A DNA stretch of 64,000 bases, taken from Eledone cirrhosa. Taxonomy: Eukaryota. Both the position numbers and the translations under genes were made by a program. The notes under the pieces were generated by a model. It searched no databases and was not told where the DNA came from. It saw only the letters and a program-made list of their open reading frames with translations. Every line of letters begins with the position of its first letter. Position 1 is the first letter of the stretch. Shown in pieces: positions 6,953 to 16,344 of this stretch. Where the stretch lies: contig OZ024741.1 in the NCBI GenBank assembly GCA_964016885.1, positions 277,698,001 to 277,762,000 on the forward strand, given 5' to 3'.

Positions 6953-7462
6953 ACACCTAGGCAGGTTTAGTTAGTTTCCAACGATGTTGTATCTCACAGG
7001 AAGTTTTTCTCGGTTGTTTCTATGTTAGGGCTCGCCCAGTCTTATGATGCTGCTGTTGTTAACACAAGGGAGAGAGAAAGAGAAAGAGAGTGTGTGTCTA
7101 TATAAGAGAGAGGGAGAGAGAGGGTAATGGTGTGTGTATCTAAGAGAGAGAAAGGGGTGACTGTGTGTATGTGAGATATATATATATGTAAGATATATAT
7201 ATATATATATATATATATATATATATATATATATATATATATATATATATATATATATATATATATATATATATATATATATATATATATATATATATAT
7301 ATATATATATATATATATATATATATATGTAGATAAATCTACCAAGAATTTACGGTAGTGTCCAATCCGTATGAAGAACTCAATGTATTCCGGATATCAT
7401 GGAAAGAAGAGATGTAATGAAAAATCACTTTCGGTGAAAGATAAACGGTATACAGAGTCAAG

Positions 7463-10400
7463 ATAAAATATTAAACAAATAATGAATTCCTTATATTAAA
7501 CAAAAAAAGTTCATTATTTAACGATCGTTTCTAGGATATATATGTGTTAGAATTGGCATGCATATTCAACAGATCTATGTACAAAATTATACAAAATTAT
7601 ACAAACTATCAAGATTAAATATACATACCAACACATATATACGCCGTCTTCAGAAATAATGAAGTATATTTATTGATAATAACAACAATTCAAAATTTCA
7701 GGTCCGTTTGGGAACAAAAATTGACCAATGAAAACAACAAAGGGTTAAATGCAGTTCGGTGTGTGTATATACATGTAAAACCCTTACACATATTTTACAA
7801 AAATGTATGTATAATTTGTATACGCATACTAAAAGGATGGATGCAAATACAAAATTTCAAAATTTCAAGGTTAATGTCTCTGTAAGTTTATAATGCACAG
7901 ATAAGATGCGTATTGACACAAGTATGAAATTAAGTATATAAATATATTTTTTCATACTCACACATATCCGTACAATCACACATACACGCGCGTATATGCA
8001 TAAATATACACATAACGACGAACATACAAACACACACACACCCCCACTCACATTTATATATGTGGATATAAAATCATAAGCACATGGATATTAATTCACT
8101 CACATAAACACTGGCACACACATTTTTAGATCAAGATACAGAAATTAGGTGGGAGGGGGGGGAGAGGTCAGTATTCAACGGTCTGAGCAGACTGCCTAAT
8201 ATAGATGTATCTATAAACTAAGAAAATAAAAAATAATAAATAAACATTAAAGAGGAAAGAATAGAAAGAAAAAAGAAAAAAGAAAAAAGAAAAAGAATAT
8301 ATCAAGAAAATATATATATATATATATATATATATATAACACATACATATATATATATATATATACACACACATATATATATAATATACATATATATACA
8401 CATAGACACACACACACACATACATAAATATACACACATATACAAACACATACATACATATACACACATCCACACTAAGAACATACATACACACACATAT
8501 ATAAACATATACATATACACACATACATACATATACACATATACATACAAATACACATATATATATATATACATATATATGTATATACACGTACATATAC
8601 ACACACATATACATATAATCACACATACTATATAGACACACATATATATAACCACACACATACATGCACATATACAACACTTACATACTAATATACATAC
8701 AGATATACACATACATAGCTATATATACACACAAATATATACAGACTTACATATATACATACAGACAAATACTTACGCATCTATATATCGGTATATACAT
8801 ACAAACACCACTACACTATCACACAACTTAGACATACAAAGAGAAAGGTATATACCTATACACACATACATATACAATAGAAAAAACATATAGATATATA
8901 TATATATATATACACACACATATATATATACATATATATATATAACATATATATATATATATATATATACACATACATATACACATACACACACATACAC
9001 ATACACACACATACATACATGTACACACACATAGAAATATATACGCATACACACATACACACATACATATAAAGTCATACACACACATACACCTACACGA
9101 ACATACACATACACATATATAAAGATATATATACACACACAACGCAAACACACATACACATATATATAAAAAAAATAAATAATAAAGATATATACATATA
9201 TATATATATACATATATATATATATACATATATATATATATATACACATACATATATATATACATACACATACATACACACATACATAGACATACATGTA
9301 CATGCATACACGTACATCGATATACATACATATATATATACACACATAGACATATACATACATACACACACAACTTACATACACACATATATATACATGT
9401 ATATTCATACATAGAATTAGATATATAATCATACATACATATGCATTTACTTATACTCATATATACAAATACATACGCATCCATATATGCGTATATACAT
9501 AAAAACACCACTACAACCTCACCTAACTCAGACATACAAATAAAAATAAAAAGGCATATGTATATACATATATACACGCATTAATAGAGATATATATATA
9601 CATACATATATATATATATATATATATATATATATATATATATATATATATATATATACACACATACATTCATATATATATACATATAGATACCCACACA
9701 CACATACCACCATAAATACACATACAAACACCCACATATACATATATATACACACGTATATATATATATATATATATACACACACATAAAAAACAGACAT
9801 GCACATATATATATATTTTTTTACACTTATATATACACATATTATATACACATACACAACCTCACATATACACACATACACATAAGTTATATTATAATAA
9901 TAAAAAATAATATATATATATATATATATATATATATACATACATATATATATATATATATACATATAAACATATACATACATATATACACACATACGAA
10001 TATAGACATATATTCACACATAGACACCTATATATATATATATATATATATATATATATACACACACATACATATACACAGACACATATACACACTCACA
10101 TATATATGTGTGTGCACACACACATATATACACACATACACACATATACACATAAACACATATATGTGCATACATGCACACACACACACATATATCCACA
10201 TAGATACGAAGATAGACATATAAATAGAGAGACATACATATATATACAACACACATACACACACATACATACACACACATATACATATACATATATATAC
10301 ATATATATATATTTCTATATATACATATATACATATATATATATATATATATACATATATATATATACATACACATACACATACACACATTCACATACAC

Positions 10401-12476: not shown

Positions 12477-15400
12477 ATTTTTTTGAAAAAAATATGTATA
12501 TGTATATGTGTATGTGTATGTGTGTGTGTATGTATATGTGTATATATGTATATATATATATATGTGTATGTATATGTATATATGTATGTGTATGTATATG
12601 TATATGTATATGTATTAATTTTGATTTCTATTTGCATATAATTATATTATGCTATTGATAAAATACAATATCTGTTTTATGTATTATATACCTAATTAAC
12701 ATATACTATAGAAATAAATATATAATTTTTAATTAGTTAACCTATAATTTATATTCTACTACCGATGTAATACTTTATTTTATTTGTTTTTTCCCTATTA
12801 CTAAATTCATTTCCTAATATTGATACCATAACGTTATTAACTTTAATTTAGTTATACTATAATTAATACTCTACTACTATTTAACTTCAAAATTCTGCTT
12901 CAAATATTATAAACCTAACTAATTTACACCTTAGAAATCAATATGTTAACTATCTTTGGTTTAGTTAACATATAATTAATGGTATACTTGTTTATTTTGA
13001 GATGCATAGATTTTGCCTTAGTTCTTGTTTATTGTATTTCCTAACACTGAAACTATGTAAAAACATACATTGGATCAAGATACGGAAAATATTCTATGTT
13101 TCTTGAAACATATATTTACTATGATCCCCTTCTCCAAACCCCCCCTTTCCCCCATACTATTATCATCTGTATTTGTAAGCGTGTATGTATGAATATATAT
13201 GTAGGTAGGTGTCTATATAGGTTTGGGTATTTATATCTGAATATAAAAATACATATATGCGCATGCAAATATGAATGTAAGATTGTGTGTGTATATATGA
13301 GTGTGTGTATGTATGTATATATGTGTATATATGCATGTATATATGTATGTGTATGTGAATGTGTGTATGTGTATGTGTATGTATATATATATATGTATAT
13401 ATATATATATATATATGTATATATGTATATATAGAAATATATATATATGTATATATATGTATATGTATATGTGTGTGTATGTATGTGTGTGTATGTGTGT
13501 TGTATATATATGTATGTCTCTCTATTTATATGTCTATCTTCGTATCTATGTGGATATATGTGTGTGTGTGTGCATGTATGCACATATATGTGTTTATGTG
13601 TATATGTGTGTATGTGTGTATATATGTGTGTGTGCACACACATATATATGTGAGTGTGTATATGTGTCTGTGTATATGTATGTGTGTGTATATATATATA
13701 TATATATATATATAGGTGTCTATGTGTGAATATATGTCTATATTCGTATGTGTGTATATATGTATGTATATGTTTATATGTATATATATATATATATATG
13801 TATGTATATATATATATATATATATATATATATATTATTTTTTATTATTATAATATAACTTATGTGTATGTGTGTATATGTGAGGTTGTGTATGTGTATA
13901 TAATATGTGTATATATAAGTGTAAAAAAATATATATATATGTGCATGTCTGTTTTTTATGTGTGTGTATATATATATATATATATATACGTGTGTATATA
14001 TATGTATATGTGGGTGTTTGTATGTGTATTTATGGTGGTATGTGTGTGTGGGTATCTATATGTATATATATATGAATGTATGTGTGTATATATATATATA
14101 TATATATATATATATATATATATATATATATATATGTATGTATATATATATCTCTATTAATGCGTGTATATATGTATATACATATGCCTTTTTATTTTTA
14201 TTTGTATGTCTGAGTTAGGTGAGGTTGTAGTGGTGTTTTTATGTATATACGCATATATGGATGCGTATGTATTTGTATATATGAGTATAAGTAAATGCAT
14301 ATGTATGTATGATTATATATCTAATTCTATGTATGAATATACATGTATATATATGTGTGTATGTAAGTTGTGTGTGTATGTATGTATATGTCTATGTGTG
14401 TATATATATATGTATGTATATCGATGTACGTGTATGCATGTACATGTATGTCTATGTATGTGTGTATGTATGTGTATGTATATATATATGTATGTGTATA
14501 TATATATATATATGTATATATATATATATGTATATATATATATATGTATATATCTTTATTATTTATTTTTTTTATATATATGTGTATGTGTGTATGCGTT
14601 GTGTGTGTGTGTGTGTGTATATATATCTTTATATATGTGTATGTGTATGTTCGTGTAGGTGTATGTGTGTGTATGACTTTATATGTATGTGTGTATGTGT
14701 GTATGCGTATATATTTCTATGTGTGTGTACATGTATGTATGTGTGTGTATGTGTATGTGTGTGTATGTGTATATGTATGTGTATATATATATATATATAT
14801 ATATGTTATATATATATATGTATATATATATGTGTGTGTATATATATATATATATATCTATATGTTTTTCTATTTGTATATGTATGTGTGTATAGGTATA
14901 TACCTTTCTCTTTGTATGTCTAAGTTGTGTGATAGTGTAGTGGTGTTTGTATGTATATACCGATATATAGATGCGTAAGTATTTGTCTGTATGTATATAT
15001 GTAAGTCTGTATATATTTGTGTGTATATATAGCTATGTATGTGTATATCTGTATGTATATTAGTATGTAAGTGTTGTATATGTGCATGTATGTGTGTGGT
15101 TATATATATGTGTGTCTATATAGTATGTGTGATTATATGTATATGTGTGTGTATATGTACGTGTATATACATATATATGTATATATATATATATATATAT
15201 ATATATATATATATATATATGTGTGTATTTGTATGTATATGTGTATATGTATGTATGTGTGTATATGTATATGTTTATATATGTGTGTGTATGTATGTTC
15301 TTAGTGTGGATGTGTGTATATGTATGTATGTGTTTGTATATGTGTGTATATTTATGTATGTGTGTGTGTGTGTCTATGTGTATATATATGTATATTATAT

Positions 15401-16344
15401 ATATATGTGTGTGTATATATATATATATATATGTATGTGTATATATATATATATATATATATATATATATATATATATATTTTTCTTGATATATTTCTTT
15501 TTTCTTTTTTCTTTTTTCTTTTTTCTTTTTTCTTTTTTCTTTCTATTCTTTCCTCTTTAATGTTTATTTATTATTTTTTATTTTCTTAGTTTATAGATAC
15601 ATCTATATTAGGCAGTCTGCTCAGACCGTTGAATACTGACCTCCCCCCCCCCCTCCCACCTAATTTCTGTATCTTGATCTAAAAATGTGTGTGCCAGTGT
15701 TTATGTGAGTGAATTAATATCCATGTGCTTATGATTTTATATCCACATATATAAATGTGAGTGGGGGTGTGTGTGTGTTTGTATGTTCGTCGTTATGTGT
15801 ATATTTATGCATATACGCGCGTGTATGTGTGATTGTACGGATATGTGTGAGTATGAAAAAATATATTTATATACTTAATTTCATACTTGTGTCAATACGC
15901 ATCTTATCTGTGCATTATAAACTTACAGAGACATTAACCTTGAAATTTTGTATTTGCATCCATCCTTTTAGTATGCGTATACAAATTATACATACATTTT
16001 TGTAAAATATGTGTAAGGGTTTTACATGTATATACACACACCGAACTGCATTTAACCCTTTGTTGTTTTCATTGGTCAATTTTTGTTCCCAAACGGACCT
16101 GAAATTTTGAATTGTTGTTATTATCAATAAATATACTTCATTATTTCTGAAGACGGCGTATATATGTGTTGGTATGTATATTTAATCTTGATAGTTTGTA
16201 TAATTTTGTATAATTTTGTACATAGATCTGTTGAATATGCATGCCAATTCTAACACATATATATCCTAGAAACGATCGTTAAATAATGAACTTTTTTTGT
16301 TTAATATAAGGAATTGTTTATTCATTATTTGTTTAATATTTTAT
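12477..16344 (+). repeat. Right arm of ~3.8-kb inverted repeat
   Basis: Reverse complement of 7463-11273. Confidence 0.95.
16137..16290 (+). ncRNA. Type-I hammerhead ribozyme motif (long stem II)
   Basis: Stem I ttcattattt/aaataatgaa (10 bp); core CTGAAGA at 16147-16153; GAAA at 16269-16272; palindromic stem III A-CGATCG-T; GUU cleavage triplet; stem II tatatatgtgttgg/ctaacacatatata. Confidence 0.7.

Follow-up and report, generated by a model that had tools for sequence, protein, structure and literature searches.

Fixed 3' ends, matched arms and a hammerhead-associated 5' stop in a probable Hydra-type Penelope-like family of Eledone cirrhosa

A 64,000-nt stretch of the Eledone cirrhosa genome (contig OZ024741.1, positions 277,698,001 to 277,762,000; hereafter the window) contains a 9-kb fold-back insertion made of two inverted copies of a Penelope-like element (PLE) with predicted hammerhead ribozymes. 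In the assembly the fold-back is genuine, and within its family it is ordinary; its value lies in the family-level signatures rather than in the flagged single locus. Copies of the family end at one of two fixed 3' positions, nearly always one on each side of an insertion, the two arms of an insertion derive from one source and match one another, and many arms stop at a fixed 5' site in the hammerhead. We consider it reasonably probable that twin priming on one RNA with a capped strong stop explains these insertions.

Coordinates of the fold-back are positions in the window, and those of the element refer to copy L032, which serves as the natural reference unit (7,035 nt). The genome holding the fold-back is 3.0 Gb. 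Searching it with the spacer between the arms returned 2,527 candidates and searching with an arm 2,184, the best 40 of each showing 97-100% identity. Exact matches genome-wide number 6,716 for a hammerhead 27-mer, 341 for a subfamily-specific endonuclease 26-mer, 311 for the start-codon region and 669 for a 24-mer inside the microsatellite; reversed-sequence controls gave 0. Two position-ordered samples were drawn. The first 100 of the 6,716 hammerhead matches formed 61 clusters, all of which were retrieved, and the first 100 of the 341 endonuclease matches, with the window's own excluded, gave 97 arms from 80 of 82 regions.

Two 3' ends and matched arms

All sampled ends lie either at unit 7035 or 137 nt beyond it, the longer form carrying what we call the tail. 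With the window excluded, 33 of 36 outward-facing end pairs combine one tail with one short end, two are short-short and one is tail-tail (p = 2e-7). The arms of a single insertion are also closely matched. In 17 head-to-head pairs they differ at 0-6 sites over 0.9-2.7 kb, the medians to other copies being 11-37; the partner arm is strictly the nearest in 12 of the 17, and the two 5' ends lie no more than 110 nt apart in nine (null mean 2.0, p = 5e-5). In seven pairs, a tail-only arm of 160-348 bp has no overlap with its partner; in at least five further pairs, the tailed arm is shorter than the other.

Twin priming would produce such insertions in a few steps. The element protein would nick both strands of a (TA)n target; one 3'OH would prime at the tail end of the RNA and the other 137 nt upstream, and both polymerases would then move toward the RNA 5' end. 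Should the rear polymerase collide, the arms would not overlap; should it instead displace the first complementary DNA (cDNA), they would. Microhomology would finally join the two cDNA ends.

The insertions could also arise by self-priming, with the first cDNA, or in the proposal of PMC3846280 an antisense template, folding back and serving as its own template. This would yield matched arms, 5' ends that stop close together and short palindromic junctions, and it agrees with the frameshift of one insertion (L187, G000:C2:160382966-160388044), which is common to both of its arms and occurs in no other sampled copy. Self-copying can only yield an arm contained within the first one, however, whereas the seven pairs above have non-overlapping arms and at least five more combine a shorter tailed arm with a partner that lacks the tail. 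Self-priming also leaves the single tail per insertion unexplained, and we regard it as unlikely.

The 5' stop at the hammerhead

The hammerhead motif in each arm of the fold-back consists of a 10-bp stem I, a CUGAAGA core, a 115-nt helix II hairpin, GAAA and a palindromic helix III. Its fold has a z-score of -5.2, and the constrained active fold lies about 3 kcal/mol above the minimum-energy fold. Rfam at its gathering threshold gives 0 matches in the window, and a short-spacer hammerhead pattern gives eight there, none inside the element; both miss these motifs because helix II is so long. The make-up is that of a canonical hammerhead with a greatly extended helix II, and we treat it as a predicted ribozyme.

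The hammerhead core is reached by 77 first-pass arms, and 44 of them stop at unit 6827-6838, mostly at 6831-6833, among the initial bases of the hammerhead. Not one of 20 second-pass long arms stops there (p = 1e-6 versus the first pass), and the contrast persists when this subfamily's variant is taken alone (12 of 28 first-pass arms, p = 5e-4). In 428 of 1,730 arms a G is the non-templated base preceding A6831, compared with 29 of 340 before the next base (odds 3.5). A6831 lies in the context TC-A-TT, which is initiator-like. Among published precedents, an initiator-like TCACT has been noted in the pseudo-long terminal repeat (pseudo-LTR) of a PLE (PMC3846280), a PLE with an internal promoter is known (PMC2377424), and an untemplated G has been read as cap copying in L1 (PMC9341517). 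Illumina reads of restriction-site-associated DNA (RAD) from two other samples, both filed under the species name of this genome, show a doubling of depth at window position 16139, with the proviso that cut sites bias the depth of such data, as well as strand-switch joints at 16139-16140; one run contains 199 loose-ended reads before 16140. Since these signatures appear in Illumina reads, the hotspot is not a long-read artefact.

The same site defines a class of very short insertions. At about 960 loci genome-wide, two hammerhead cores are joined head to head with a junction of varied length. A mini-palindrome of about 550 bp comprises two hammerhead arms that start at unit 6831-6833 plus one tail; examples on G000:C1 are L052, L060, L065, L068, L069, L071, L106 and L110. 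At G000:C1:162169026-162183231, head-to-head hammerhead junctions recur every 2.2-2.9 kb, in a tandem amplification with a mini-palindrome among its members. The mini-palindromes might be a separate family, similar to miniature inverted-repeat transposable elements or retrozymes and amplified as a unit, as the similar size of some 960 loci and the recurrence of some junction forms would suggest. Against this, the first 100 matches listed differ widely in the length and filler of their junctions, and the minis span several subfamily backgrounds, with one tail and (TA)n flanks like the long copies. Nor do they fit the definition of non-LTR retrozymes, which are tandem direct repeats with a type I hammerhead in each and no open reading frame (ORF); the mini-palindromes are inverted, two-armed and tailed. 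A separate origin seems quite improbable.

Under twin priming, a capped RNA starting at A6831 would make both polymerases stop after about 200-340 nt and leave the palindrome of about 550 bp. A template without an end at A6831, either a hammerhead-made circle or a read-through multimer, would give long arms and tandems. A capped full-length messenger RNA as the sole template was rejected, since none of 20 long arms terminates at the RNA start. We thus infer two classes of template: a capped RNA with its start at the ribozyme, and an RNA without an end there, either circular or read-through. A full cycle, in which a protein dimer twin-primes one RNA at the two fixed sites, strong-stop cDNAs of retrovirus-like kind become mini-palindromes and a hammerhead circle templates the long arms and tandems, is put forward only tentatively.

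Several points weigh against this account. No long arm ends at the A6831 of an upstream repeat, contrary to what a simple capped full-length messenger RNA would give, and it is for this reason that the second template class is assumed. The transcript start, the cap, ribozyme cleavage and the circles are all deduced from DNA. Part of the G before A6831 can stem from the partner arm via microhomology, and the control for this base excludes a different templated base. Thirty-three detected ends are unpaired and three pairs break the one-per-side rule, although some of the unpaired ends are variant ends missed by the search pattern or have partners outside the retrieved stretch. Two RNAs from one source locus would yield matched arms as well. 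For the Poseidon protein PAc, the ribozyme is reported to be dispensable for insertion in vitro (PMC11167929). Finally, an AATAAA is present 9 nt upstream of the stop at A6831, which means that cleavage could also create that end.

This last point bears on a variant in which twin priming holds and the 6831 stop marks a processed RNA end or a structural roadblock instead of a capped start. Cleavage at a poly(A) site after the AATAAA would be in keeping with the CA at the site and the GU-rich sequence downstream, and an exonuclease halted by the folded ribozyme, with the coincidence of the stop and the 5' strand of stem I. A processed end is harder to reconcile with a 3.5-fold enrichment of G exactly at A6831, as cap copying predicts (PMC9341517), and a roadblock should act on the second pass too, where no stop is seen. 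We allow the variant a minor but real chance.

The family and the flagged locus

The intact copies of the family contain an uninterrupted 813-aa ORF, with a reverse transcriptase (RT) followed by a C-terminal GIY-YIG endonuclease (for example L032:963-3455). The protein shows the GLYRDD core and YIGAT, and has 106 homologues. A Pfam search with it returned one match, which is not significant, and a sequence search of the PDB returned two chance matches only. An insert of about 100 aa rich in N, T, K and H sits between the thumb and the linker (about aa 490-600) and is missing from most homologues; it is reminiscent of the N-rich inserts in Adineta Penelope (PMC3846280). Because ORFs of at least 780 aa are present in 17 of the 23 sampled arms that cover the whole ORF, the family, with its 7.0-kb unit, is evidently autonomous; it is also young. 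Sampled copies display the PLE traits of partial tandems (pseudo-LTRs), inverted 5'-truncated copies and an optional tail. Multi-unit arrays occur at G000:C2:36294947-36325605 (L174-L178), C1:183737158-183757205 and C1:420382477-420396315, and include a head-to-head arrangement of three units against three; the unit period varies from about 6.05 to 7.1 kb across subfamilies. Divergent fragments of Hydra-type PLEs lie beside or inside some insertions (L032 just past 7759, the starts of L041 and L045, and L074), which suggests that several (TA)n-targeting PLE families nest in common tracts.

The element very probably belongs to a Hydra-type family. Published Hydra elements (e.g., Hydra-1_Obim and Hydra-2_Amil) are described as having an RT followed by a C-terminal endonuclease, RWK and DKT motifs, a CxCx5C linker, CxxC and CxH, near-3' hammerheads and (TA)n targets (PMC8557442). 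Here, the endonuclease is C-terminal (YIG at aa 707 of 813), RWR is found at aa 37 (relatives carry R or K) and DKT, the Hydra variant of DKG, at aa 115, and the CxCx5C linker (aa 673), CxxC (aa 771) and CxH (aa 799) follow the pattern of the Hydra rows in the published alignment. By eye, the endonuclease resembles those rows; lack of a CCHH motif is a further trait described for the clade. An (AT)4 or longer follows 103 of 107 family ends, in line with (TA)n insertion. The assignment is based on these motifs and not on a tree, which counts against it. Three features fall outside the described Hydra range: the unit of 7.0 kb, compared with published lengths of 1,080-3,045 bp; the 4.3-kb, microsatellite-rich 3' untranslated region (UTR); and the 115-nt helix II, compared with loops of 3-10 nt (PMC8557442). 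The insert before the linker is a further difference. The 7,035-nt unit exceeds the description of Hydra elements as generally under 3 kb, though length is descriptive and not diagnostic.

Other clades fit less well. The initial annotation had placed the element in the Naiad clade, whose members carry the endonuclease N-terminally and lack canonical hammerheads (PMC8557442). This is wrong, as the GIY-YIG domain is C-terminal, the hammerheads are present and the CxCx5C linker is the published mark of Hydra. Naiads do share with this family the (TA)n preference and the inverted and tandem forms. The Neptune and Nematis clades have a CX2-5CxxC linker (PMC8557442), which differs from the CxCx5C found here. 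A Neptune identity was considered and dropped, the published alignment showing a Hydra-type linker and the Neptune rows differing.

The locus itself lies between two (TA)n tracts. The left target tract (7176..7328, unstranded) has a single GTAAGA interruption, and the right one (16342..16762, unstranded) contains GTAAGA interruptions too. These matching flanks, already reported in the initial annotation, belong to this target site, and other copies end in different (TA)n tracts. The 137-nt tail (7326..7462, minus strand) is the start of the next unit's 5' UTR, with a 100% match to unit 1-137, and its outer limit at 7326 coincides with the family's distal fixed 3' end, at which other copies also finish. 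At the tail terminus (7329-7342), a 6-bp hairpin ends in bases that resemble the (TA)n target and may be a priming stem-loop.

The left, tailed arm (7463..12482, minus strand) spans unit 1970-7035, that is, the 3' end of the ORF and the complete 4.3-kb 3' UTR, and the right, tail-less arm (12479..16344, plus strand) spans unit 3180-7035. They meet head to head at 12479..12482 (unstranded), where they overlap in a T-run microhomology. When 7452-11259 is aligned to the reverse-complemented right arm, there are 3,775 matches, 13 mismatches and 14 gaps; six of the mismatches and one gap are edge effects that fall outside the arm, at its outer edge. Both the near-identical inverted arms around a spacer and the reading as a 5'-truncated PLE copy with an inverted, hammerhead-bearing partner are thus borne out. 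The earlier epithet of a giant fold-back is correct as to the 9-kb size, but several sampled head-to-head insertions span 5-13 kb, which makes it ordinary. Type I hammerhead motifs with the 115-nt helix II occupy 7510..7663 (minus strand) and 16137..16290 (plus strand; palindromic helix III). Two hammerheads had been placed one at each outer end; they exist, but the left one is not at the very end, since the tail extends beyond it. Unit A6831, the family-wide 5' stop site and putative capped RNA start, corresponds to 16140 (plus strand; mirror position 7660).

The spacer (11272-12478) contains the broken ORF end with linker and GIY-YIG, as had been noticed. A spacer-only segment at 11272..11722 (minus strand) is the start of the 3' UTR by alignment to the unit, and 11723..12482 (minus strand) holds the 5'-truncated ORF end, composed of a thumb remnant, the CxCx5C linker and the GIY-YIG domain with CxxC and CxH. 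Between 11892 and 12416 the ORF end carries eight one-base indels, mostly in short homopolymers, and six substitutions, all private to this copy. Among 85 arms, the number of private changes in the ORF end is 0 in 51, 1 in 20, 2 in 9, 3 in 4, and 14 here; the counts of 0-3 in the other 84 rule out general hypermutation near 5' junctions. Only the spacer is aberrant. The arms of the fold-back are normal and stay near the family majority, as those of young copies generally do, with only two arm-private changes. The first comparison of arms with the family used copies chosen for their likeness to the window and was redone on the position-ordered sample. Indel-rich stretches also appear in single units of tandem arrays (L174 and L179), the siblings of which have 0-1 private changes, and therefore point to consensus error. 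Read depth shows the family base throughout at 12113 (three read sets) and 11634 (two), a weak hint that the private alleles at these positions are not real. The spacer frameshifts are most likely an assembly consensus error or a one-off lesion, and not family decay.

These data also bear on the proposal of a non-autonomous, Naiad-like element kept symmetric by mobilisation in trans or by arm-to-arm gene conversion, which was prompted by a broken spacer ORF between matching arms. The C-terminal endonuclease, the Hydra motifs, the intact relatives and lesions confined to one arm in 85 all oppose it. The family is autonomous as far as its ORFs indicate, and mobilisation in trans finds no second arm with these lesions in the sample. 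Conversion should have left an excess of arm-private changes common to both arms, where only two are seen, and it is unneeded because the arms resemble the family as closely as they resemble one another. We give the proposal almost no credence. That the fold-back is a long-read assembly artefact is very improbable too. None of the contigs placed on the spacer, nor any read, bridged the head-to-head junction of the locus, a point that also counts against our account; together with the error-like indel cluster in the spacer it speaks for an artefact. Yet the arms differ by indels of 7 bp and 8 bp and by the presence of the tail, they obey the tail rule of the family, and family strand-switch joints occur in Illumina reads.

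Tandem repeats occupy 2,455 of the 4,304 nt of the 3' UTR, and the complex (TA/CA) microsatellite cargo, which is family-wide, lies at 8294..10585 (minus strand) in the left copy and at 13164..15500 (plus strand) in the right. The initial annotation suggested that this region travels with the element, and the 669 exact 24-mer matches and its colinearity in other copies agree. The 3' UTR is colinear among close copies and 77-88% alike in three more distant copies with near-identical protein ends; a diverged UTR beside a near-identical protein means that the cargo is inherited and fast-evolving. By a rough estimate (about 2,500 arms x 2.4 kb), the family cargo makes up some 0.2% of the genome, and its contribution to genome microsatellites looks modest. 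Short tandem repeats account for 23% of the window outside the element.

Elsewhere in the window, positions 5631-6951 hold 11 copies in tandem of a unit of 119 bp (96% matched, with a substructure of about 40 bp), and an assembly gap of 200 N lies at 3366-3565. Two copies of long interspersed elements, with translated ORFs broken across several frames, occupy 27600-32500 (minus strand) and 34750-38190 (plus strand); we take them to be L1/Tx1-like from their endonuclease and RT. A fragment at 42450-42977 (plus strand) presumably derives from a Tc1/mariner-like transposase. The stretch 54000-64000 has a very even composition (GC 0.51, GC skew 0.33) and is probably a satellite array.

Known systems and implications

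PLEs are the closest retroelement relatives of telomerase. In L1, twin priming was reportedly described by Ostertag and Kazazian in 2001 as the priming of both target nicks on one RNA, with an inversion as the result. The segments of that system reportedly do not overlap and its second site is variable, whereas in the present family neither site varies and each arm usually repeats the other. A closer parallel is the Poseidon protein PAc of Anolis, which in vitro cuts and extends both strands at AT-rich targets and has two adjacent internal start sites that set the tail (PMC11167929). Poseidon belongs to another clade, and the accessible text does not report one site per strand, arms from the same template or a 5' stop at the ribozyme. 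The one-per-side rule is this family's addition to the two-start-site picture. The tail of 137 nt compares with 30-40 bp given for PLEs.

Other systems share parts of the picture. An inverted 5'-truncated copy has been noted for Penelope-13_HM (PMC8557442). In Schistosoma, pairs of minimal hammerheads on opposite strands lie 100-700 bp apart, are linked to truncated PLEs and have a palindromic helix III, but no fixed 5' stop or extra G is described in the accessible part of that report (PMC4209133). The retrozyme preprint, in the portion available, concerns tandem direct repeats. Recent Penelope copies in penaeid shrimp move simple sequence repeats along, the clade, a kilobase-scale UTR cargo and the mechanism going unstated in the accessible text (PMC7878876). 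A literature search, with most subscription papers outside its reach, found no Hydra element of comparable size, no fixed 5' stop with an extra G and no report of one tail per insertion as a rule.

The assembly of tandem and inverted PLE insertions and the role of the hammerhead are stated to be open questions (PMC8557442, PMC2377424, PMC11167929). The present family brings to them thousands of copies at 97-99% identity, which allow predictions at the level of single bases: the RNA start, the priming sites, their use one per strand and the template classes. The in vitro assay already published could be run with a Hydra-clade enzyme taken from its intact ORFs. With this element, the size range published for the Hydra clade is more than doubled, and a microsatellite cargo of kilobase scale is shown moving with a retroelement. 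If the proposals are true, a 7-kb Hydra element would transport 2.4 kb of microsatellite in each arm into (TA)n targets, and the full-cycle model would give the PLE ribozyme a job and explain how pseudo-LTRs are regenerated.

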